Of a DNA stretch of 64,000 nucleotides, positions 6,371-42,983 are shown piece by piece. Under the pieces are notes generated by a model. That model was not told the origin of the DNA and made no database searches. It worked only from the letters and a program-made list of their open reading frames with translations. Source of the DNA: Candidatus Cryptobacteroides sp. (GTDB taxonomy: Bacteria > Bacteroidota > Bacteroidia > Bacteroidales > UBA932); assembly GCA_045599225.1 (NCBI GenBank), contig JAZRVN010000030.1, positions 42,035 through 106,034 on the forward strand, read 5' to 3'. The position numbers and the translations under genes are program-made. Positions within the stretch are counted from its first letter, which is position 1. Each line of letters opens with the position of its first letter.

Positions 6371-7092
6371 AGACAGCTCTTTGAAATAATTATTTGGAAA
6401 ACTCGATTTTGATACCTACTTTTATATATTATAATATGAAAGCAAAGTATACTATTGAGGACTTAAAGAGTGCAGTCATTGCGAGTAAATCCATAGCAGG
6501 TGTTCTTAGGGAACTTGGCTTACGACCAATTGGTGGCAATTACAGAACAATCCATCGATTAATCTCCAAAAATAATATTGACATTTCGCATTTTACAGGT
6601 CAAGGTTGGAATATTGGTTTAAATTTTAAGCCCAAAAAGGCTATACCAGATTCTGAAATATATATTGAAAATTCAGAATATAGGTGTTCCTGGAGGTTAA
6701 GAGAACGTTATAAAAAAACAACAGGGATCTCTTATTGCGAACATTGTAAGTCAAAGGAATGGATGGGGCAACCTATTCCTCTAGAAATTCACCATAAAAA
6801 CGGCATCAATACTGACAATCGCTTGGAAAACTTACAATTACTGTGTCCTAATTGTCATGCTCTAACAAATAATTATCGAGGAAGGGCACTTTTGAGTGCA
6901 CTCTCTGAAAAGAGGGATGTAGAATGTCGTAAATTCAAGGAAACCTTAACGGGTAATGCTGATGGCAATCTTGAGCCAAGCCTTTAAGAAGGAAGGTGCA
7001 GAGACTAGACACGACACACCTAAAGAATTGTCTATGGTGAAGGAATAGTCCAGACCACAAACAATACCGGTGGCGAAAGCCATAGTGGCAAG
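6371..7092 (+). ncRNA. Group I intron (IC3-like ribozyme) inserted between U34 and A35 of tRNA-Leu(UAA)
   Basis: The 5' exon ends in U and the intron ends in G (7092). Candidate guide sequence TTTGAGT (6891-6897) pairs with ACTT|AGA across the 5' splice site, with a U-G wobble at the junction. A P2-like hairpin is CTCTCT-GAAA-AGAGGG (6901-6916). AAATTCAAGGAAACC (6931-6945), GGCAATCTTGAGCCAAGCC (6964-6982) and AAGGTGCAGAGACTAGAC (6993-7010) match my memory of the Azoarcus tRNA-Ile and Anabaena/plastid trnL intron cores. A GGC-GAAA-GCC hairpin lies near the 3' end. Confidence 0.8.
6436..6987 (+). CDS. Intron-encoded HNH homing endonuclease
   Basis: The HNH/zinc-ribbon motif is CEHCKS..LEIHHKNGINTDNRLENLQLLCPNCHALT. 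I placed the first ATG at 6436; the ORF-track start at 6394 is a TTG. About 33% GC by hand count of four 60 nt lines, against about 50% in the flanks. The gene lies wholly inside the intron. Confidence 0.85.
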   Translation: MKAKYTIEDLKSAVIASKSIAGVLRELGLRPIGGNYRTIHRLISKNNIDISHFTGQGWNIGLNFKPKKAIPDSEIYIENSEYRCSWRLRERYKKTTGISYCEHCKSKEWMGQPIPLEIHHKNGINTDNRLENLQLLCPNCHALTNNYRGRALLSALSEKRDVECRKFKETLTGNADGNLEPSL

Positions 7093-33069: not shown

Positions 33070-33585
33070 CTACTTTGTTTGCGCATTACGCGAGTGACTC
33101 GCGTCCGCGCAACTTTCTTCGTAGCCCAGGGCTATGACGCAAAGGACGCGGCGGCCGGCGGGGATGTCTATGACTGTGCGCAGGTAGTCTTCGGCAGTAC
33201 CTAATGAGGCGTCTTTGCGGCTGCGGGGGCGTCCGTTGACGTGAACCCAACAGCTTCCGAGACCCTTATCCACGGCGGAAAGATGTAGGAACGTGGCGCT
33301 TATGGCGGCGTTATCCACCCACAGGTCGGTCTTTTCCGTATTTCCCATTACCACTATTGCGGCAGCGGCCCCTTTGATAAGGGCGGAGCCGAAATCGCGC
33401 ATTTGGGAAATGGCTTCGAGCGTGGCTTTATCTTCAACCACCAGGAACTCGCTGCTTCTGCAGTTCTTTGAAGACGGTGCGGTGAGAGCCTCCGATATCA
33501 TTTCATCGATAAGGGAGCGCTCCACCGCACGGTCGGTAAATTTTCTGACGCTGTGCCTTGCGGCAATCAATTCCTTGTATTCCAT
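33070..33585 (-). CDS. Nitroreductase-family protein
   Basis: 171 aa. RHSVRKF is typical of the NADH oxidase/flavin reductase fold. The C-terminal tail is encoded by the palindromic repeat. Confidence 0.8.
   Translation of the reverse strand: MEYKELIAARHSVRKFTDRAVERSLIDEMISEALTAPSSKNCRSSEFLVVEDKATLEAISQMRDFGSALIKGAAAAIVVMGNTEKTDLWVDNAAISATFLHLSAVDKGLGSCWVHVNGRPRSRKDASLGTAEDYLRTVIDIPAGRRVLCVIALGYEESCADASHSRNAQTK
33079..33112 (-). repeat. 34 bp palindromic repeat, copy 2
   Basis: The plus strand reads TTGCGCATTACGCGAGTGACTCGCGTCCGCGCAA. It overlaps the last codons (..CADASHSRNAQ..) of the nitroreductase ORF. Confidence 0.85.
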
Positions 33586-33593
33586 TTTTCCTG

Positions 33594-34595
33594 CTAGAAC
33601 AGTTTCAGATTATCGAAAGACGGGGTTAACTCTCCGTCTTCAATCTTATGTACAATCTCAACCACCTTGTCGTTCATAGGGGTAGGACATCCCACCTTCC
33701 GCCCATAGGCGCAAACACTGCCGTTGATGGAATCGACCTCGGTTTTCTTGCCGTTCTCTATATCCTGCAGCATACTGGCCTTGAGCAGACGGTGCTTTTT
33801 AATCGCAAACGGAAGAAGAAGCAGGGAAACCGCCTTCTTGACAGGATTTGAATAGTTGAAAAGCTTCACGATATCCTTACCCTGAACCGGCTCTATGCGT
33901 ATTCCTCCGGCGGAGCACACGTCCATACATTCTTTCATTATAGCCTGCACCACCTTTCTCTGGGGAATCTCCGCTACCGTTTCTCCGAAAGTACAGCCCA
34001 GCACTGCGCTCATTCCCGAGAATGCGGCGTTGATAAGCAGCTTGCTCCAACGGGTTCCTATGAAATTCTCTTCCATCTCCACGGGTCCCATAAGTTCGAG
34101 CAGAGCCTTCACGTCCTGAATGTACGCGTTGGGTCTTGGACTCGTGGAACCAAGAGAGAAAGTGAGGCTGTCAGGCTCGCTGGTAAGTTCGCACACTCCG
34201 TCTCCGGTCTTTGTCGCACCCCAGGCAACCGTACATCCCAGCACGTGGTCTTCACCCACGATTTCACTGATAAGCATCTCCGGGATTCCGTTCTGAAGCG
34301 TTACAATCACTCCGTCTTCGGTCAAAAAATCCTTCAGGAAGGTAACGACTTCACGATTCTGAAGCTGCTTTGTCATAAGGAAGACAATGTCGTACTTCCC
34401 CGTCATCTCTTCGGGAGTGTAAACCTCTACCTTCTGGGTAAAATTCACTGTTCCCGTAACAACCGCACCGTTTCTGCGGATGGCATCGACGTGTGCCCTG
34501 TTGCGGTTTATAAGGTCTATCCGACCTCCGTTCTTTGTGATGTAGGCTCCCAGAATCATTCCCAGGGAGCCTGCTCCGTAAATTGCCGCTCTCAT
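33594..34595 (-). CDS. Ketopantoate-reductase-family (PanE/ApbA) NAD(P)H oxidoreductase
   Basis: I placed the start at MRAAIYGAGSLGMILG (Rossmann GxGxxG). ATGA overlaps the upstream gene's stop. The longer ORF-track N-terminus overlaps the AcnX small-subunit gene. Confidence 0.75.
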   Translation of the reverse strand: MRAAIYGAGSLGMILGAYITKNGGRIDLINRNRAHVDAIRRNGAVVTGTVNFTQKVEVYTPEEMTGKYDIVFLMTKQLQNREVVTFLKDFLTEDGVIVTLQNGIPEMLISEIVGEDHVLGCTVAWGATKTGDGVCELTSEPDSLTFSLGSTSPRPNAYIQDVKALLELMGPVEMEENFIGTRWSKLLINAAFSGMSAVLGCTFGETVAEIPQRKVVQAIMKECMDVCSAGGIRIEPVQGKDIVKLFNYSNPVKKAVSLLLLPFAIKKHRLLKASMLQDIENGKKTEVDSINGSVCAYGRKVGCPTPMNDKVVEIVHKIEDGELTPSFDNLKLF

Positions 34596-35032
34596 AATAT
34601 TCTTACTGTTCCGTCTTCGGTTACTTCTACAATATCTCCTGTCTTTACCGTATCCAGAAACTCCTGTCCCAGCCGGTCTATGGCTATGATATTGCTGTTT
34701 TCCCATACTACCGACAGAATCACGCCGGCACCTGCCAGAGAATCGATGTGCTCCGAAAAGAGCAGGCAGGCGGGATTGATTCCCATCGAACAAATGACCT
34801 GAAGCACCATTCCTCCCGTTGTAGAACCTATTGTCTGCGGAAGGCACAGGGCTTTTCCGGTAACGTTCTTCTGGTAGATGTCGGGATTGTTCTGGTCGGC
34901 TATCTTCACTTTCTTGGCGTGCATTATCGCCGAACTCTGGAAACTTGCCAGAGTGTTTACGCCCCTATGGGACACTACGGCCTCTCCTTTATAATATCCG
35001 CCGTTGAGCACCCGTCCTTTGAATTCTTTCAT
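34592..35032 (-). CDS. Aconitase X swivel-domain protein (DUF126, AcnX small subunit)
   Basis: 146 aa. MKEFKGRVLNGGYYKGEAVVS..GKALCLPQTIGSTTGGMVL is the DUF126 pattern. It has 4 nt overlaps on both sides. Confidence 0.75.
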   Translation of the reverse strand: MKEFKGRVLNGGYYKGEAVVSHRGVNTLASFQSSAIMHAKKVKIADQNNPDIYQKNVTGKALCLPQTIGSTTGGMVLQVICSMGINPACLLFSEHIDSLAGAGVILSVVWENSNIIAIDRLGQEFLDTVKTGDIVEVTEDGTVRIL

Positions 35033-36330
35033 AATCTGTCCTCCTTTCCCGTTACGATGGCAAGCAATTCGTCATCTTTATAATACCTTGCAAGCGAATA
35101 TGTACGCAGTTTGTTGGAACAGGTCATAATCCTTCTCGACTTGGTGAGGGGATTCGACGTGTACATAAGAGGGCAGATGGAAGTGAGTTCCACCCCGGCC
35201 TTCCTTATCTGCGAGTATTTTCCGGTCTGGGCAAAAGCCTTGGCTACCGCAGGCGGAGTGAACAGAACCGTCTGGCAGGTAACCTTCTGTCTTCCGGCAG
35301 ATTTCAAGCCTTCCAGAATCCTGTCTGTCCAGTCCTCGAGCTGCGTCCTTGAAAGATGCGGGCAACCTATGAAAGCAATGGTACCCTTCTTTTCGGGTTC
35401 CTTCCACATTACAGGATAGGACTTGTACACTCTCTCAAGCTCGGCATCATCTATTACATACTCCCGGTATCCCTCCTGCAACAGGCTCCCGCCCTGTTCC
35501 TTCGCCTCCGGAGTAATGTTTTCGACGTGGTACAGACCCACGGCTCCGTTGGAAGCGGTGGCGGCTCCGAAATCCTTGAGATATGACTTGCATTCTTCAG
35601 TCAGCTCAGTTCCTATCCACTTGTCAAGACCCGTCACGTAAGGGACGTCTTCCATCACCTTAAGCCCTATGGCAGAACCCAGAATCTGGGGCAGAGGTTT
35701 TTTTGTGGTATTAACCGTAACCTTCCATTTGGCCTTGCGTCCCTCATCGGTCAAAAGACCGAACTTCGGAACATATCCTACAATGGAGCCGAAGAGCTCG
35801 ATCATACCGGAATTACGGTTGCAACGGGCTCCAAGCACCGAATTGGCGTAATTCACAGCACTGGATTCAGCCCAGGAAAGAATGTCTCCCTTCGCAGGAA
35901 CGTTCCCGATTTCGGGATAATAGCAGGTGCAGGTAAAGGCATCGTCGCTCTTGAGTCCGAGTTTGGTAAGCTGCTGTTCGTAACTTCCCTGCTTTCCGTA
36001 AAGAATCTTCGTGTAAAGAAGTTTGTCCAGAAGGCTGCAGCTTACATTCTCTATGTCGTTGGGACGCGGGTCGGCGGTGAAACCTTCCTCAACCTTAAGA
36101 CCGGCGTCAATCAACTCGTCCATTATCCTGAAAACAGGGGTGAGCAGCGACAGCCCGAAGGATGTAACCAGATGTCCCTGTCCGTGAGTCACTTTTACAA
36201 GTTCGGTAGCCTCGAACATATCGCCGTAACGCACGATTGTCTCCATCACCTTCGCTTTTACGGCGCCCTGTTTACCCTCCAGAATTTCTATCTGCTCGGG
36301 CGTCAGTTTCATTTTGTACCGGTATGCCAT
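35029..36330 (-). CDS. Aconitase X catalytic-domain protein (DUF521, AcnX large subunit)
   Basis: 433 aa. MKLTPEQIEILEGKQGAVKAKVMETIVRYGDMFEATELVKVTH is typical of DUF521 N-termini. Confidence 0.75.
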   Translation of the reverse strand: MAYRYKMKLTPEQIEILEGKQGAVKAKVMETIVRYGDMFEATELVKVTHGQGHLVTSFGLSLLTPVFRIMDELIDAGLKVEEGFTADPRPNDIENVSCSLLDKLLYTKILYGKQGSYEQQLTKLGLKSDDAFTCTCYYPEIGNVPAKGDILSWAESSAVNYANSVLGARCNRNSGMIELFGSIVGYVPKFGLLTDEGRKAKWKVTVNTTKKPLPQILGSAIGLKVMEDVPYVTGLDKWIGTELTEECKSYLKDFGAATASNGAVGLYHVENITPEAKEQGGSLLQEGYREYVIDDAELERVYKSYPVMWKEPEKKGTIAFIGCPHLSRTQLEDWTDRILEGLKSAGRQKVTCQTVLFTPPAVAKAFAQTGKYSQIRKAGVELTSICPLMYTSNPLTKSRRIMTCSNKLRTYSLARYYKDDELLAIVTGKEDRL

Positions 36331-36336
36331 ATCTTC

Positions 36337-38391
36337 CTATATTTTCATTGCCACATCCCAGGCACGCCAGATGGCCGTACGCAGGTTACCTATTCCGTTG
36401 CAATCTCCTACGAGCTTAACCTTTCCTTTCTCCTCGAAGAGTGGCTGAGGTCGGTATCCCATCGAAGTGATTACGGTGTCGCCCTCTATTTCGAAGACTT
36501 TCCCGTCTTTGTCCACCACGGTTACTCCCTTGTCGGTAAACTCCTTCAGTCTGGTGTCAAGATGCACCTCCACCTTGTTGAGTTCGAAGAAATCCCTCAG
36601 GTATGAACTGTTTGCAAGGCATACGCCCTTAACGGCAATGAGGTCGTTTTTCATCTCCACAATCACGGGAGTCTTACCCTTCAGGTAAAGGTCATAGGCG
36701 ATTTCGCAACCGGTAAGCCCTCCGCCTATTATGATAACCTTCTGTCCGGTAGGGGCTCCGTCCAGATAATCGCAGGCCTCGATGGATTTCCCGATACCGG
36801 GAATGCGGGGACGGTTTGCCTTTCCTCCGGTTGCAACTACCACTTTGTCGAATTCTCCGAGTTCCTCAATAGACTTAACGGTGGTGTTGAAACGGATTTC
36901 GATTCCAAGATCCTTCATTTCCTTCCCATACCAGGCAAGCAGTTCCCTGTCCTTTTCCTTGAACGAAGGAGCAGCGGCAAAGTTGAACACTCCGCCAAGA
37001 CGCTCCGACTTCTCGAATATTACAGGCTTGTGGCCCCTGAGAGCAAGTACACGAGCCGTTTCCATTCCACCGATTCCGGCACCTATCACAGCCACCTTCT
37101 TCTGCTTCTTTGCGGGAACTATCTTATACTTGCGTGACTGCATCGTAGTGGGATTGATTGCACATCGGGCCATTCCCATATTGTCGGAAAGGCTCTGGTC
37201 GTTGCCAACTCCCTTGTACGATGCCATATTGAAACAGGCATTGTGACAGCAGATGCAGGGGCGGATCGACTCCAGGTCTCCTTTCATAAGTTTGGTAATC
37301 CACTGAGGGTCGGCCAGGAACTGACGGGCAACGCCCATAGCGTCTATCTGCCCGGCGGCTACCGCCTCGGCGGCGGTTTCGGGAGTCATTCGGCCTGCGC
37401 ACACTACAGGGATGTCCACGTATTTCTTAATGTGGCTTACATCCTCGAGGTTGCAGTTCTGCGGCATATACATAGGCGGATGAGCCCAGTACCAGGCATC
37501 GTAGGTTCCATTGTCGCAGTTGAGCATATCGTATCCGGCATCCTGCAGATATTTTGCAGCCCTTTCGCTCTCTTCCATATCTCGACCCATCTCAACGTAG
37601 TCTTCGCCGGGCATCGCGCCTTTTCCGAAGTCCTTGGTTTTGGAAACCACCGAATAACGCAGAGAAACGGGGAAATCCTTGCCGCACACATTCTTGATAG
37701 CCTTCACTATTTCTACGGGGAAACGGTAGCGGTTCTCGAAACTTCCACCGTACTCGTCGTCACGCAGGTTCGTATATTTCATCGTGAACTGGTCCAACAG
37801 ATAGCCTTCGTGTACAGCATGAATCTCCACACCATCCACGCCTGCATCCATACACAGTTTGGCAGTCTTGGCAAAGGCTTCCACCATTTCATCGATTTCC
37901 TTCTTGGTCAAAGGGCGGGACATACAGCTTTCTTCCCAGCGGTTGGGGGTAGCCGAAGCCGAAGCCGTAAGGTAGTCCATATCCAGAATCGGCTTCATTA
38001 CAAACCCCAGGGCCTTGTTCTTGCAAGCCTTTACCATAATGTCGTTGATAGCCATACTTCTTCCGAATCCGGCTGTCATCTGCACGAACATCTTGGCTCC
38101 GGTCTTGTGGAATTCATCCATAAATTCCTTGAGTTCCTTGAATTTTCCCTTGCCCTGATACAGCCATTTGCCAAGAATGATATCCTTGATGGGCGCAATA
38201 CCGGGCAGAATAAGTCCGACGTTGTTTTTTGCTCTCTCGAGAAGGAAGTTCGCGGCTTCCTTGTCAAAGTGGTTGGGTTCCAGCCATCCGAAAATGGATG
38301 TGCCTCCCATAGAAGTCATCACAATGCGGTTCTTGATTTCTACATTGCCTATCTTCCACGGGGTAAACAAGGCTTCATACTTTTGGTCCAT
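36337..38391 (-). CDS. FadH / 2-enoate-reductase-type flavoenzyme (OYE-like FMN domain + 4Fe-4S + FAD/NAD(P) Rossmann domain)
   Basis: 684 aa with an N-terminal OYE-like TIM barrel. The Cys cluster is CICCHNAC..(23 aa)..C. The Rossmann motif is VAVIGAGIGGMETA. Confidence 0.8.
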   Translation of the reverse strand: MDQKYEALFTPWKIGNVEIKNRIVMTSMGGTSIFGWLEPNHFDKEAANFLLERAKNNVGLILPGIAPIKDIILGKWLYQGKGKFKELKEFMDEFHKTGAKMFVQMTAGFGRSMAINDIMVKACKNKALGFVMKPILDMDYLTASASATPNRWEESCMSRPLTKKEIDEMVEAFAKTAKLCMDAGVDGVEIHAVHEGYLLDQFTMKYTNLRDDEYGGSFENRYRFPVEIVKAIKNVCGKDFPVSLRYSVVSKTKDFGKGAMPGEDYVEMGRDMEESERAAKYLQDAGYDMLNCDNGTYDAWYWAHPPMYMPQNCNLEDVSHIKKYVDIPVVCAGRMTPETAAEAVAAGQIDAMGVARQFLADPQWITKLMKGDLESIRPCICCHNACFNMASYKGVGNDQSLSDNMGMARCAINPTTMQSRKYKIVPAKKQKKVAVIGAGIGGMETARVLALRGHKPVIFEKSERLGGVFNFAAAPSFKEKDRELLAWYGKEMKDLGIEIRFNTTVKSIEELGEFDKVVVATGGKANRPRIPGIGKSIEACDYLDGAPTGQKVIIIGGGLTGCEIAYDLYLKGKTPVIVEMKNDLIAVKGVCLANSSYLRDFFELNKVEVHLDTRLKEFTDKGVTVVDKDGKVFEIEGDTVITSMGYRPQPLFEEKGKVKLVGDCNGIGNLRTAIWRAWDVAMKI

Positions 38392-38418
38392 AGGTTAGTG
38401 TTATTGTGTTGTTTGTGT

Positions 38419-39012
38419 TTAGCGATATTCTACAATCTCCTCAAGAGACTTGCGGTCGGTATGCTTCGGCGAAGGCTCGCAGTCCTTTGCGGCATAACCG
38501 AAAGGCATTACAAGCACCGGAACAACGTTTTCGGGAAGTTCCAGAGCCGCAGACAGAGCCTGCGGATTGAAATAGCCCACAAGGCAGGTTCCGATTCCAA
38601 GGTCTGCAGCTTCCAGCATCATATGGGTTATAACAATGGTGGCATCTATTTCTCCATAGCTGCCGTTCTCTCCCCTGTGTGCCGCCACATTCTTGTCGTA
38701 GCAAACTACAAAGCAATGCGGAGCGCCGTAAATGCAAGGGGAAACTTCATTCATTTTCTGCATCATCTCCCCCGATTCCACCACATAAATCTTCTGAGGC
38801 TGGGCATTGACTGCGGTAGGAGCCAACTGTCCTGCCTTGAGAATCTTCTCCACAACAGCGGAGTCCACAACGGTTGAGTCAAATTTCCGCACCGAATACC
38901 GGTCTGCGGCAAGGGCCAGAAAATCGCCGTCTGCGCAGCCGGCCTCGCTGCGGCAGGATGCGCCGGACATTATCATAACTGACATCAAAAAAAGGTTAAT
39001 TAGTTTTTTCAT
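38419..39012 (-). CDS. Nitroreductase-family protein with signal/lipoprotein leader
   Basis: MKKLINLFLMSVMIMSGASC followed by RYSVRKF. Confidence 0.75.
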   Translation of the reverse strand: MKKLINLFLMSVMIMSGASCRSEAGCADGDFLALAADRYSVRKFDSTVVDSAVVEKILKAGQLAPTAVNAQPQKIYVVESGEMMQKMNEVSPCIYGAPHCFVVCYDKNVAAHRGENGSYGEIDATIVITHMMLEAADLGIGTCLVGYFNPQALSAALELPENVVPVLVMPFGYAAKDCEPSPKHTDRKSLEEIVEYR

Positions 39013-39035
39013 ATAAAGAATTGTTTGTGTTTTCT

Positions 39036-41609
39036 TTAAAACAGTTCTTCCTTTATCCTGCGGAGCAAGTCGAAAGCCTGCATAGGAGTAATGTTGTTGA
39101 TATCCACCTTTTCAATCTTCTCACGAATCGAGCTCAGGGTCGGGTCATCCAGCTGGAAGATGGACAACTGCACCCCATCGGCAGCTTCGGCCGATGGGGA
39201 ATGCCCGTTTTCGAGATTCCTCAACGTCCTTTCCGCACTCTCGATCACTTCCCTGGGCATCCCGGCCATTCTGGCAACGTGTACTCCGAAACTGTGGGCC
39301 GAACCCCCTTCGCAAAGTTTTCTCAGGAAAATTATTTCCTTGCCCGATTCCTTAACCGAAACGTGGTAGTTCTTCACTCTGGGATATATGCTTTCAAGGT
39401 CGTTGAGCTCGTGGTAGTGGGTGGCAAACAACGTTTTTGCCCCCTTACCCTTTTCGTGAATGAATTCCACCAGCGCCCTGGCTATGGACATTCCGTCATA
39501 AGTCGAGGTTCCCCTTCCAATCTCGTCGAGCAATACCAGGGAACGCCGCGACAGATTGTGCATAATCATCGATGTCTCCAGCATCTCCACCATAAAAGTG
39601 GACTCCCCCCGGGAAATATTGTCGGTCGCCCCCACTCTGGTGAAGATTTTGTCGAAATACCCCATCTCCACACTCTTTGCTGGCACAAACGAACCTATCT
39701 GCGCCATCAGCACAATAAGGGCTGTCTGCCTTAGGAGAGCTGATTTTCCGGCCATATTGGGCCCGGTGAGGATTATTATCTGTTTGCTGTTGCTGTCCAG
39801 ACTTATGTCGTTGGGCACATATTCCTGCCCGGGCTCCATCAGCGTTTCTATTACAGGATGCCGGCCTTCCTTGATTTCCAGGCCGGTTCCCTTGTTCACA
39901 ACAGCCCGGCAATAGCCTCTTTCGTCGGCCAGAAGACCGAAATTCGACAGCACGTCAAGCTTGGAGATAACTGCACAACTTTTCTGGATATCCTTCACAT
40001 AACCCTGCATCTCCGCTATGAGATTTGCGTAGATTCCCGATTCAATGGCATATATCCGGTCCTCAGCCGTGAGTATCTTCTCTTCGTATTCCTTGAGTTC
40101 CCGGGTAATATAGCGCTCTGCACTTACAAGAGTCTGCTTCCTTATCCATTCTGCAGGAACCTGTTCCCTGTACGTATTGCGGACTTCGATATAATATCCG
40201 AATACGTTGTTATAACCTATTTTAAGTGAATTGATTCCCGTCCTCTCTATTTCCCTGCGCTGCATTTCCTGCAGGAATTCCTTTCCTCCGCGGGAAATTT
40301 CCCTGAGTTCATCAAGTTCCCGGTCGAATCCGGAGGCAATCACATCCCCTTTCCCCACCTGGGCGGCGGGTTCTTCGCACAGAATCTGCCTTATCCGGGT
40401 TTCCAACTTGGTAAAATCCTTCACCCCCTGTCCCAGCGAGCGCAGCACTTCAACTCCGGAGGCCTCGCAAAGTTCCCTGATAGGCACGAATCGGCCCAGA
40501 CTCCGGCTCAGGCCCAGCGCTTCGCGCGGATGAATCTTTCCGGTTGCAACGCGGGACATTACCCTTTCCATATCCCCTACCTGCGAAATATCCTGCCGGA
40601 TGGATTCCCTCCCCGAAGGGTTTTCCTTGAAATACTGCACTGCATCATAGCGAGCGTTAAGCTCGGTAATATCCAGAACCGGCATCGCAAGCCATTGACG
40701 CAGGAGCCTTGCTCCCATAGGAGAGCTGCACTTGTCGATAACGTCCACCAAGCTTACCCCGTCCTTTCCGGCATTGCTTTGGAAAATCTCAAGATTACGG
40801 AAGGTAAAACGGTCCATCCACACAAATTTTCCTTCATCGATTCTGGAAAGCGAGCAGATATTCCTGAGTCCGGTGTGCTGAGTCCTTTCAAGATAAACTA
40901 TGAGTGCCCCGGCAGAGCAAACCGCAAGAGGAAATTTCTCCACCGCAAAGCCTTTCAGGGAAGAAACGCCGAACTGTCGGCAGAGTTTTTCATACGCCGC
41001 ATCATAAACGAAAGCCCATTCGTCTATCGAGCTCACGTAAAAATCCGGGAATTTTTCCCTTATCATTCTTACGGAATCGCTGCACGCCACTATTTCCCTT
41101 GCGTGCAGGGAAGACATAAGGGAAGAAACGTATTCCGGGGAACCTTGGGAGAGCTGAAACGTGCCGGTACTCACGTCGAGAAAGGCCACTCCGGCTTCTT
41201 CTCCCTCAAAACAGAGTCCTGCCAGATAGTTGTGCTCCTTGCAGTCCAGCATTCCTTCGCCAAAGGCAATGCCGGGAGTAAGAATCTCGGTAACGCCCCT
41301 CTTTACAAGCTTGTTCCTTGCCAGCGCAGGGTCTTCCAGCTGATCACAAACCGCAACTTTATATCCCGCACGGATTAGTTTGGTAATATACTGTTCTATG
41401 GCGTGATGGGGGAATCCGGCCATCGGTGTGGCTTCCTTGTCGCCGTTACTCCTTTTCGTAAGAACCAACCCCAAAACCTTGCTCGCAAGCAGAGCATCGT
41501 CGCTGTATGTCTCATAAAAATCCCCTACCCTGTACAACAGGACAGCCTCAGGATTCTGCGCTTTGATGCTGAAATACTGCTTGAGCATCGGAGTGTCTTC
41601 TCTCGCCAT
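39036..41609 (-). CDS. mutS: DNA mismatch repair protein MutS
   Basis: TPMLKQYF, LYRVGDFYE, Walker A GPNMAGKS, 857 aa. Confidence 0.97.
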   Translation of the reverse strand: MAREDTPMLKQYFSIKAQNPEAVLLYRVGDFYETYSDDALLASKVLGLVLTKRSNGDKEATPMAGFPHHAIEQYITKLIRAGYKVAVCDQLEDPALARNKLVKRGVTEILTPGIAFGEGMLDCKEHNYLAGLCFEGEEAGVAFLDVSTGTFQLSQGSPEYVSSLMSSLHAREIVACSDSVRMIREKFPDFYVSSIDEWAFVYDAAYEKLCRQFGVSSLKGFAVEKFPLAVCSAGALIVYLERTQHTGLRNICSLSRIDEGKFVWMDRFTFRNLEIFQSNAGKDGVSLVDVIDKCSSPMGARLLRQWLAMPVLDITELNARYDAVQYFKENPSGRESIRQDISQVGDMERVMSRVATGKIHPREALGLSRSLGRFVPIRELCEASGVEVLRSLGQGVKDFTKLETRIRQILCEEPAAQVGKGDVIASGFDRELDELREISRGGKEFLQEMQRREIERTGINSLKIGYNNVFGYYIEVRNTYREQVPAEWIRKQTLVSAERYITRELKEYEEKILTAEDRIYAIESGIYANLIAEMQGYVKDIQKSCAVISKLDVLSNFGLLADERGYCRAVVNKGTGLEIKEGRHPVIETLMEPGQEYVPNDISLDSNSKQIIILTGPNMAGKSALLRQTALIVLMAQIGSFVPAKSVEMGYFDKIFTRVGATDNISRGESTFMVEMLETSMIMHNLSRRSLVLLDEIGRGTSTYDGMSIARALVEFIHEKGKGAKTLFATHYHELNDLESIYPRVKNYHVSVKESGKEIIFLRKLCEGGSAHSFGVHVARMAGMPREVIESAERTLRNLENGHSPSAEAADGVQLSIFQLDDPTLSSIREKIEKVDINNITPMQAFDLLRRIKEELF

Positions 41610-41618
41610 AGACCGCAG

Positions 41619-42983
41619 TTAATTGAAAATATTGGTAATGAATATCAGAACCAGCATAACAGGAACAATGTACCGTACCCAAAAATAAAGCAAAGGATAC
41701 AGTTTCAGCGACACTTTATTGGTTCCCCCGTTCGTAAGTTCGCTCCAAACCTTTTTTCTGTCCATTTTCCATCCCACAATAATGGCAAACAGCAGGGAGC
41801 CCAGAATCATCAGCAGGTTGGAAGACACTTTATCCAATATTCCGAATATGTTGTTCCCCTTTATCTGAATCCAGGACAAGGGGCCGAATGACAGGCTGCA
41901 TATTATGCCAATAGCCACACATATTCCGAAACAAATGAACGTGGCTTTTCTTCTGCTGACGCGTTTTTCTTCGACAAAGTATTCCACAAGCACTTCGAGC
42001 ATCGATACTTCGGAAGTTATTGCGGCGCCAAGTATGGAGAGGAAGAAAAATATCGGAACCAGATAACTCAGGACCGGAGATACATCCCCCATCGAGGCGA
42101 AAATATAGGGCAAAGTCTCGAAAACAAGAGAAGGGCCGGCATTGGCTTCGATACCGGCCGAAAATACGGCTGGAATTATTGCAAAGCCCGAAAGAATTGC
42201 AAAGACAGTATCGAAAATTACTGTAAAAAAGCCCGCTGTAACAATGCTTTCATCATTTCTCATATAGGAAGAGAAAACGAGAATCGTACCCACCCCAAGG
42301 GACAGGGAGAAGAACGACTGCCCCATCGCGCTCGCCAGAACTCCCGGAGTTATCTTTCCGAAATCGGGTTTGAGCAGATAATTGATTCCTTCCATCGCTC
42401 CCGGCAGAGTGCAGGAATACACAACGATTACCAATATCAGCACGAACAGCATCGGGACTGTAATGTTGTTGAACTTTTCTATCCCTTTCTTCAATCCGCG
42501 GATTACTATTGCCGCCGTTATAGCAAGGAAAATTATGTGGGAAATTATGGGTTCGAAAGCCGATGAAGAATATTCTCCGAAGAAGGATACCGCCTCCTCT
42601 TTTGAAATTCTTCCGAAAACTCCGGTACAGGCTCTTACGAAATAATCAAGAGCCCATCCTCCGACTACACTGTAAAAAGACGTGATCAGCAAAGGAGCGA
42701 CAATTAGAAGTCCGCACCACTTCTTGCCTGCTTTCCCTTTTACAAAAGGTTTTATTGTGGAGACCATTCCCTTTCCACTGCTTCTTCCAAGCAGGGATTC
42801 GGTAAAGAAAATCGGCAGCGCTACAAGCAATGAACACAGAAGGTAAACCACAATGAATGCCGCTCCACCGTTTTCACCGGCCATATAAGGAAAACGCCAG
42901 ATATTGCCAAGACCTATGGCTGAGCCGGCAAAAGCGGCAAGCAGCGCAAGACGTCCGCTGAATTTTTCTCTCTCCTGTTTCAT
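41619..42983 (-). CDS. Sodium-dependent transporter (neurotransmitter:sodium symporter family)
   Basis: GLGNIWRFPYMAGENGGAAF, with about 11-12 hydrophobic segments. Confidence 0.9.
   Translation of the reverse strand: MKQEREKFSGRLALLAAFAGSAIGLGNIWRFPYMAGENGGAAFIVVYLLCSLLVALPIFFTESLLGRSSGKGMVSTIKPFVKGKAGKKWCGLLIVAPLLITSFYSVVGGWALDYFVRACTGVFGRISKEEAVSFFGEYSSSAFEPIISHIIFLAITAAIVIRGLKKGIEKFNNITVPMLFVLILVIVVYSCTLPGAMEGINYLLKPDFGKITPGVLASAMGQSFFSLSLGVGTILVFSSYMRNDESIVTAGFFTVIFDTVFAILSGFAIIPAVFSAGIEANAGPSLVFETLPYIFASMGDVSPVLSYLVPIFFFLSILGAAITSEVSMLEVLVEYFVEEKRVSRRKATFICFGICVAIGIICSLSFGPLSWIQIKGNNIFGILDKVSSNLLMILGSLLFAIIVGWKMDRKKVWSELTNGGTNKVSLKLYPLLYFWVRYIVPVMLVLIFITNIFN

Follow-up and report, generated by a model that had tools for sequence, protein, structure and literature searches.

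The window analysed here, a stretch of 64,000 nucleotides (nt) from contig JAZRVN010000030.1 of a Candidatus Cryptobacteroides sp. genome, carries on its minus strand, downstream of mutS, six genes coding, in this order, for a nitroreductase-family protein, a FadH/2-enoate-reductase-type flavoenzyme, the large (AcnXL) and small (AcnXS) subunits of an aconitase X (AcnX), a PanE/ApbA-family protein resembling 2-dehydropantoate 2-reductase, and a second nitroreductase-family protein (Table 1). An earlier note on this DNA had treated the six genes as a single redox/dehydratase cluster; their common orientation, their domain families, two ATGA overlaps, and gaps of no more than 30 nt were all found as it had claimed. 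Comparison with related loci gives a smaller conserved functional unit. It consists of the reductase, AcnXL, and AcnXS, since the pairing of these genes recurs across loci while PanE and the two nitroreductases do not recur with them and are local neighbours.

Three sets of loci, ~250 related loci overall, were compared: 80 centred on AcnX (60–79% identity), 80 centred on the reductase (65–98% identity), and 77 centred on PanE; in the later part of the comparison, neighbours were tallied manually from tables. Hosts in the AcnX-centred set were Clostridia, Bacilli, Erysipelotrichaceae, Anaeroplasma, Spirochaetaceae, and Bacteroidales, nearly all of them represented by gut metagenome-assembled genomes. 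AcnXS adjoined AcnXL in every AcnX-centred locus whose contig extends past AcnXL. A FadH-type flavoenzyme was adjacent to AcnX in at least 37 of the 80 loci (35 found by tblastn, and two more cut by a contig end). Thirty-one of these enzymes, including the two cut ones, are orthologues of the window reductase (57–82% identity). The other six, located upstream of AcnXL in loci L010, L015, L022, L066, L070, and L074, belong to a second FadH-type lineage of ~745–800 amino acids (aa) that is ~30% identical to the window reductase; its presence at the same AcnX-adjacent position suggests independent recruitment of an ene-reductase. When the reductase was used as the centre, AcnXL–AcnXS was adjacent in 55 of 80 loci, and eight of the remaining 25 end at most ~500 nt downstream of the reductase gene and are uninformative. 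The position of the reductase relative to AcnX varies: it can be upstream, downstream (L011, L013, L018), divergent (L019, L020), or convergent (L046). The association of AcnX with a FadH/enoate reductase is thus real, recurring as it does across phyla and in several gene orders.

Of the wider gene neighbourhood, only the reductase–AcnXL–AcnXS part is kept. PanE was present in one of the 80 AcnX-centred loci (L014, at a distance of 4.6 kb), and in the reductase-centred set it was seen only in L158, a close Cryptobacteroides relative (same contig as L081). About 70 loci with PanE orthologues, many of them from Bacteroidales at 65–75% identity, carried neither AcnX nor the reductase, and the only PanE-centred loci with the trio were L081 and L082, both from Cryptobacteroides-like genomes. 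The proposal that PanE is a member of the unit is not borne out by these counts. Nor do nitroreductases bracket the unit in general: they were found in none of the 80 AcnX-centred loci, and in the reductase-centred set a homologue lay near the reductase only in L158, the close relative, and in L159 and L237. The second nitroreductase is present in L081 (93% identical) and in no other trio locus. PanE and both nitroreductases are probably bystanders that share a transcript with the trio.

In L081 (Candidatus Cryptobacteroides fimicaballi, 93–98% identical to the window), the stop codon of mutS lies 35 nt from the reductase start, and the first nitroreductase gene is missing. In the window, this gene constitutes a 612-bp indel (38409–39030) flanked by a 10-nt direct repeat, ACACAAACAA; L081 has a single repeat-like copy, which reads AACCAAACAA. 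In L083, from a closely related Bacteroidales genome whose PanE is 94% identical to that of the window, the order is nitroreductase, GH31 glycosidase (612–2957), PanE, with no trio. The glycosidase of L083 stands where the window has the trio, between nitroreductase and PanE, and the stretch downstream of mutS/nitroreductase therefore acts as a site of variable cassettes. In Candidatus Cacconaster (L159), genes for an M28 peptidase and GlnRS come after the trio.

AcnXS is overlapped at both ends, with ATGA start/stop overlaps read directly from the sequence at 35029–35032 and 34592–34595, and the remaining gaps among the six genes are 27, 6, and 8 nt. The minus strand continues upstream of the six genes with a 23-nt gap, mutS, an SNF symporter gene, folA, thyA, and a gene for a thioredoxin-like lipoprotein. 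Since tight packing runs on into mutS through thyA, packing and co-orientation do not set the six genes apart; in L083, PanE is packed equally tightly behind the GH31 glycosidase gene. The lesson for annotation is that tight packing in Bacteroidales genomes does not amount to a shared-function operon unless comparative evidence supports it. A promoter/terminator scan returned the same counts as in shuffled sequence and, as its consensus does not fit Bacteroidota, was uninformative on co-transcription. An Rfam scan of the window and of seven trio loci revealed no riboswitch or leader adjoining the trio.

Table 1. Features of the six-gene locus and its upstream boundary in the window, and small MCP-like (methyl-accepting chemotaxis protein-like) proteins encoded beside the trio in other loci.
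Feature	Sequence	Coordinates	Strand	Remarks
SNF-family sodium symporter	window	41619–42983	-	upstream of mutS
mutS	window	39036–41609	-	upstream boundary; MutS domains I–V
Direct repeat copy 1	window	39021–39030	-	ACACAAACAA; read from sequence
Nitroreductase-family protein (first)	window	38419–39012	-	197 aa; PF00881
Direct repeat copy 2	window	38409–38418	-	ACACAAACAA; just upstream of reductase start codon
FadH/2-enoate-reductase-type flavoenzyme	window	36337–38391	-	684 aa; Oxidored_FMN + Pyr_redox_2; CxxCxxxC...C motif
AcnX large subunit (AcnXL)	window	35029–36330	-	433 aa; PF04412, 296.4 bits vs gathering 31.5
AcnX small (swivel) subunit (AcnXS)	window	34592–35032	-	146 aa; PF01989, 37.7 bits vs gathering 27
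PanE/ApbA-family 2-dehydropantoate-2-reductase-like protein	window	33594–34595	-	333 aa from ATG at 34595; TIGR00745, PF02558, PF08546
Nitroreductase-family protein (second)	window	33070–33585	-	171 aa; PF00881; without leader
MCP-like protein	L246	8777–9616		beside trio
MCP-like protein	L249	4313–5185		beside trio
MCP-like protein	L248	5112–5825		beside trio

Trio genes from Bacteroidales, Christensenellaceae, Lachnospiraceae, and Treponema share ~80% identity, while close homologues of the flanking PanE come from Bacteroidales (65–80% identity; Firmicutes homologues do not exceed 64%). The trio therefore looks like a horizontally transferred module, and it is present in hundreds of gut and rumen anaerobe genomes. 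A whole-library search with AcnXL returned 1,634 cluster representatives (clustering at 50% identity) with E ≤ 0.001, of which 147 reached E ≤ 1e-30; among such representatives, the clade of the window AcnXL itself has only ~15 full-length members, at 39–60% identity.

Cultured organisms were reached by a search from a 46%-identical AcnXL member. In Clostridium carboxidivorans P7 (CP011803.1, ~893.2–897.0 kb; Ccar_03865 and adjacent genes), a divergent TetR gene precedes reductase-AcnXL-AcnXS (AcnXL and reductase 53% and 43% identical to those of the window, respectively), and in a Thermoanaerobacter assembly the same three genes follow a gene for a sigma54-PAS activator. In Capillibacterium the order is AcnXL-AcnXS-reductase. 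In a Clostridium sp. and in C. thailandense, the trio is followed by a gene for a small MCP-like protein (71% identical between the two). Small proteins of this kind, 237–290 aa long, with MCP as their only assigned domain and ~120 N-terminal residues free of any assigned domain, adjoin the trio in both Clostridium species and in Capillibacterium; they may be dedicated chemosensors for the substrate of the pathway.

Genomes with only one of the partners were also found. Rhodococcus and Bacillus, which are aerobes, have a LysR regulator and AcnXL-AcnXS but no reductase; Enterococcus avium and Faecalicatena have a reductase orthologue alone, accompanied by AraC or TetR, and the Faecalicatena TetR is 46% identical to that of C. 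carboxidivorans. A further stand-alone reductase orthologue (L190) adjoins a catalase gene. The coexistence of solo-reductase, solo-AcnX, and paired genomes fits a 2-enoate as the shared intermediate, which some organisms would reduce, some would make or hydrate, and many would both make and reduce. In a plasmid search, the sole plasmid copy of this AcnX clade was that of Rhodococcus opacus PD630 (two records). On plasmid pRoPD630_1 (L252 1–10745; L244), a LysR-regulated AcnX pair is located beside genes for an MFS transporter, an alpha/beta hydrolase, and a short-chain dehydrogenase/reductase (SDR), 5.5 kb from genes annotated as FAD-dependent monooxygenase, alpha/beta hydrolase, and 3-carboxyethylcatechol 2,3-dioxygenase. 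The latter three can be read as mhpA-, mhpC-, and mhpB-like, which provides a lead towards phenylpropanoid substrates. A further genome scan returned only two near-identical Rhodococcus loci, so the lead comes from one lineage.

The solved structure nearest to AcnXL is that of TkAcnX from Thermococcus kodakarensis (PDB 7cnr; 2e-35, 34% identity), with type I hydroxyproline dehydratases following at 1.5e-17 and 25% identity; AcnXS could be aligned to TK1248 (7cnr_B, 4e-5) and to AtAcnX. Residue equivalences were obtained by alignment to 7cnr and 7d2r, and residue roles are those given by Watanabe et al. 2021 (PMC8184944). The predicted Fe-S ligands are Cys134, Cys323, and Cys386 (Tk Cys110, Cys283, and Cys342). 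Catalytic residues are kept as Glu155-Ser156-Ser157, Lys407, and Tyr411 (Tk Glu129-Ser130, Lys361, and Tyr365), and AcnXS contains the motif G69-S70-T71-T72, with Ser70 at the general-base position (Tk Ser62). The ligand pattern is that of type IIb, with Cys323 present and an equivalent of Cys510 absent. Given that PF04412 and a separate PF01989 both score above gathering and that cluster and catalytic residues are all conserved, the two proteins appear to form a two-subunit AcnX of type II.

The positions responsible for specificity differ from those of both characterised AcnX enzymes. At Asp203 (Tk Ala47), which contacts the hydroxyproline nitrogen in AtAcnX, is replaced by His53, and two further substrate contacts, At Ile206 (Tk Ser50) and, in the small subunit, At Trp35 (Tk Leu27), by Thr56 and Leu28, so that of the AtAcnX residues compared, Thr72 of the small subunit alone is kept. 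Tk Asn53 and Asn79 (the latter equivalent to At Asn233), both of which bind phosphate in the Tk enzyme, correspond to Gly59 and Asp87, and the Tk loop Gly48-Val49-Ser50 is replaced by Leu54-Val55-Thr56. The close AcnX clade shares the motifs GHLVTSFG and DP(R/K)P as well as Asp87, and His53 and Asp87-Pro-Arg89 are clade-specific; by the alignment, His53, Asp87, and Arg89 lie at or next to positions whose counterparts in the solved AcnX structures touch the distal end of the substrate. According to PMC8184944, only two AcnX activities are known and four bacterial subclasses are uncharacterised; in these subclasses, IIc–IIf, the landmark residues of both known activities are absent. Since the specificity residues of both characterised enzymes are absent here as well, the window AcnX most probably belongs among the uncharacterised type II subclasses IIc–IIf, going by the description in that paper. 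As judged by these residues, the enzyme has neither of the two known specificities, that of cis-3-hydroxyproline dehydratase and that of mevalonate-5-phosphate dehydratase.

The partner enzyme has the architecture of clostridial 2-enoate reductases and FadH, as read from its domains and motifs: an Old Yellow Enzyme (OYE)-like flavin mononucleotide (FMN) domain (PF00724, 197.6 bits, residues 8–371), a predicted 4Fe-4S motif with four cysteines (CICCHNAC...C, matching CxxCxxxC...C), and a C-terminal flavin adenine dinucleotide (FAD)/NAD(P)H domain (PF07992, 116.9 bits, residues 431–660, with GAGIGG). The same three-part build, with an FAD/NADH domain as the third part, is described for FldZ and Enr (PMC5882074). 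The sequence HAVHEGY in the FMN domain provides a His-x-x-His pair and a Tyr proton donor; this Tyr marks alkene-reducing members of the flavoenzyme family, as opposed to amine-oxidising members, which have His (PMC11759058). The nearest solved structures are 2-naphthoyl-CoA reductase (6qkg, 8e-60) and FadH (1ps9, 1e-57). Source annotations give orthologues the automatic name "2-enoate reductase", and the protein falls below every NCBIfam equivalog cutoff, including those for BilR (NF045599, 347 vs. 750) and BaiCD (NF041087, 344.9 vs. 825).

We propose, at a probability of roughly 60%, that the trio is a horizontally mobile dehydratase–reductase module that would convert a 3-hydroxy acid to a 2-enoate and then, with NAD(P)H, to the saturated acid. 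The AcnX heterodimer, with a [4Fe-4S] cluster on Cys134, Cys323, and Cys386, would bind the carboxylate and the 3-hydroxyl of a free β-hydroxy acid, i.e., one that is not a coenzyme A (CoA) ester. Ser70 of AcnXS would take the C2 proton, and the cluster, acting as a Lewis acid, would drive the loss of the C3 hydroxyl, yielding a 2-enoate. In the flavoenzyme, NAD(P)H would then deliver electrons, via FAD and the 4Fe-4S cluster, to FMN for saturation of the C2=C3 bond. The net result would be a CoA-independent reductive removal of a β-hydroxyl, serving anaerobes as an electron sink or for detoxification. The direct basis of the proposal consists of the domain families, the conservation of cofactor and catalytic residues, the gene linkage, and non-membership in the two known AcnX specificities; from these we infer which of the two reactions comes first, that the substrate is a free acid, and which way the flux runs.

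As described in PMC8184944 for both solved AcnX complexes, conserved residues bind the C1 carboxylate and the C3 hydroxyl, and a serine beside C2 abstracts the proton. The expected substrate here is a 3-hydroxy acid because the residues that bind these groups are conserved. The leading candidate classes are anionic aliphatic β-hydroxy di-/tricarboxylates and 3-hydroxy-3-arylpropionates, which would yield cinnamates. Arg89 and His53, together with occasional CitMHS-type permeases, hint at an anionic di-/tricarboxylate, while the preference of FldZ for aromatic enoates (PMC5882074) and the R. opacus PD630 context hint at 3-hydroxy-3-arylpropionates. A search of the literature on tricarballylate and trans-aconitate provided no enzyme lead. 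Transporters occur beside the trio too rarely and in too lineage-bound a manner for a substrate to be named from them: CitMHS/ArsB-type permeases are near AcnX in ~5 of 80 loci, and EamA, MFS, and MATE transporters in two to three loci each. Three unrelated loci (L037 8395–9720; L165; L214) have an SNF symporter gene no more than 6 kb from the trio, as does the window lineage, where mutS intervenes; this recurrence is about at chance level and is a possible transporter lead only.

Several observations weigh against the proposed module. The genes are not always linked: some half of the AcnX loci and at least 17 informative reductase loci have no partner nearby. Three stand-alone reductase loci were inspected and had unrelated neighbours, and no dehydratase that could stand in for AcnX turned up in the inspected reductase loci that lack it. 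When all neighbouring open reading frames (ORFs) of the AcnX-centred set were clustered de novo, no recurring transporter or further enzyme emerged. The free-acid substrate is an assumption, since several relatives of the reductase, FadH and NCR among them, act on CoA esters. Finally, PanE overlaps AcnXS by ATGA in this lineage, and PanE may therefore have been recruited locally to some role here.

The alternative that survives best is that the two enzymes share a metabolite and act in reverse or in parallel, with AcnX hydrating or isomerising the enoate on a branch in competition with reduction, or with a broad-range enoate or electrophile reductase whose substrate supply AcnX widens in some genomes. 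It would account for genes that are often solo with regulators of their own, the L190 reductase beside catalase among them, and for aerobes that carry AcnX and no reductase, and aconitase-family reactions are reversible (PMC8184944). Tight reductase-AcnXL-AcnXS operons and the second reductase lineage at the same position argue instead for sequential action, and in strict anaerobes reduction would supply a thermodynamic pull towards the saturated acid. We consider reversed or parallel action rather unlikely.

Much less credit can be given to the six-gene pathway put forward in the earlier note, in which PanE would convert a 2-oxo acid to a 2-hydroxy acid, AcnX would dehydrate the latter to an enoate, the reductase would saturate it, and the nitroreductases would be accessory, the whole being a CoA-independent Stickland-type branch. 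It is true that the six genes share one orientation, that where they do not overlap no gap between them exceeds 27 nt, that PanE comes after AcnXS in the window and in the related genomes of L081 and L082, and that nitroreductase homologues are found beside the reductase in two more contexts, L159 and L237. Against this stand the absence of PanE from 79 of 80 AcnX and 79 of 80 reductase loci, the ~70 PanE loci devoid of the trio, and the arrangement in L083, where PanE and the first nitroreductase flank GH31 instead; the first nitroreductase is, moreover, an indel and a predicted exported lipoprotein, and the tight packing reaches mutS and thyA. The chemistry argues in the same direction: AcnX takes off a β-hydroxyl, not an α-hydroxyl, so the proposed route from 2-oxo through 2-hydroxy acid to enoate conflicts with it and fits only where the hydroxyl is also β to a second carboxylate, as in malate. 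Together these points make the six-gene pathway improbable.

At least as improbable is the hydroxyproline route, which had been offered as the other possibility. The protein family is the same, the GSTT motif of AcnXS keeps the Thr equivalent to AtAcnX Thr72, the enamine product of the hydroxyproline reaction is formally a 2-amino-2-enoate, and the flavoenzyme superfamily includes amine dehydrogenases. The LhpI equivalog NF051439, however, gave 132.2 bits for AcnXL, compared with a cutoff of 700, and 27.2 bits for AcnXS; His, Thr, and Leu stand in place of Asp203, Ile206, and Trp35; the Fe-S ligands follow the type IIb pattern; and the reductase has the Tyr of ene-reductases rather than the His of amine dehydrogenases. 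No hydroxyproline genes were present in any neighbourhood examined (AcnX- and reductase-centred sets, Pfam-scanned neighbours). That the window AcnX is a bacterial phosphomevalonate dehydratase of the archaeal-type mevalonate pathway is very improbable: the nearest structure is that of type IIb TkAcnX and UniRef names relatives "phosphomevalonate dehydratase large subunit-like", but the phosphate-binding Asn79 and Asn53 are replaced by Asp87 and Gly59, the partner is an ene-reductase, and there are no mevalonate-pathway, UbiD, or UbiX genes beside any locus examined (neighbourhoods, not whole genomes).

Among known systems, AcnX type IIb of T. kodakarensis and Aeropyrum pernix (7cnr/7cns; PMC8184944, PMC10040528) has the same two subunits, three Cys, Glu-Ser-Ser, Lys, Tyr, and small-subunit Ser. 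It differs from the window protein in Asn79/Asn53 (Asp/Gly here), in the GVS loop (LVT here), and in its partner, a UbiD-type decarboxylase instead of an ene-reductase; the hosts here are bacterial gut anaerobes. Type I cis-3-hydroxyproline dehydratase, of the same superfamily and with the same carboxylate/C3-hydroxyl recognition residues, catalyses dehydration only, with no isomerisation; it differs in Asp203, Ile206, Trp35, and the Fe-S ligand set, and in being found in a hydroxyproline gene cluster. Types IIc–IIf, as described in PMC8184944, are like the window protein bacterial, two-subunit, and without the landmark residues; the main text of that paper mentions no reductase partner for AcnX. 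The reductase is likened by architecture to Enr (C. tyrobutyricum, Moorella thermoacetica), FldZ (C. sporogenes; PMC5882074), FadH, NCR, BaiCD, and BilR, with a length of ~665–685 aa; no AcnX neighbour of clostridial 2-enoate reductases is reported in the literature found, and the window protein falls outside the equivalogs, as noted above.

In its logic, the trio resembles the radical 2-hydroxyacyl-CoA dehydratase branch (FldABC/HadBC with acyl-CoA dehydrogenase), which also leads from a hydroxy acid through an enoate to a saturated acid and acts as an electron sink. The substrates of that branch are 2-hydroxy acids as CoA esters, and its chemistry proceeds through ketyl radicals. For the trio, a Lewis-acid Fe-S dehydration of free 3-hydroxy acids is proposed instead, and CoA-transferase or activator genes are not present.

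Within the aconitase superfamily, no branch is understood less well than AcnX, and clostridial 2-enoate reductases are prized biocatalysts. Open-access literature on AcnX/DUF521/DUF126/PF04412 and on enoate reductases, to which the search was confined (subscription-only literature was outside its scope), contained only hydroxyproline and mevalonate work and no reductase partner, and a bioinformatics paper on 2-enoate reductases (PMC11759058) does not mention AcnX. The conserved pairing of AcnX with an enoate reductase is thus undescribed in the open-access literature searched. Both enzymes come from known families, and the specificity class of the AcnX is an uncharacterised one. No natural substrate for this 2-enoate reductase clade is defined in the literature found. 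The conserved mobile pairing gives a testable hypothesis for both enzymes at once, conversion of a 3-hydroxy acid through an enoate to a saturated acid, and culturable hosts of the trio, C. carboxidivorans P7 and C. thailandense, exist.

A broader reading, which we offer tentatively and regard as possible rather than probable, is that the trio is a widespread, exchanged, CoA-independent dehydrate-then-reduce pathway by which gut and other anaerobes turn an abundant diet-derived β-hydroxy acid into an electron acceptor. Candidates would then be 3-hydroxy-3-arylpropionates, with cinnamate reduction as the second step, or the plant di-/tricarboxylates malate, citramalate, and citrate. If true, this would provide a third AcnX activity and, for the many clostridial-type 2-enoate reductases of this large clade, a physiological substrate that has long been missing; should that substrate come from the diet or the host, the trio would offer a new set of marker genes for a transformation carried out by the microbiome.

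The genes that flank the trio have features of their own. The PanE-like protein, whose gene is of housekeeping type, scores 182 bits with TIGR00745 (cutoff 141.35) and has both ApbA domains. The first nitroreductase begins with a lipoprotein-type leader (38953–39012, minus strand), MKKLINLFLMSVMIMSGASC, which homologues of 84% and 56% identity (L083 95–688; L159 7282–7923) also have and which always ends in [GAS]-C. The leader pointed out in the earlier note is therefore probably real, its hydrophobic stretch and [GAS]-C being common to three Bacteroidales genomes at 56–84% identity. Members of the nitroreductase family are normally cytoplasmic and NAD(P)H-dependent, and a putatively exported one is odd.

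Elsewhere in the window, a full-length match to group I introns (RF00028, 53.7 bits vs. gathering 50) was found at 6852–7070 on the plus strand. Around it (6394–7070), no tRNA and no obviously interrupted host gene were seen. An HNH-endonuclease ORF (6394–6987, plus strand, 197 aa) lies directly before the match and overlaps its start, and the intron/HNH pair is located between HAD hydrolase and Fic/DOC genes in a stretch of low GC content (0.43).

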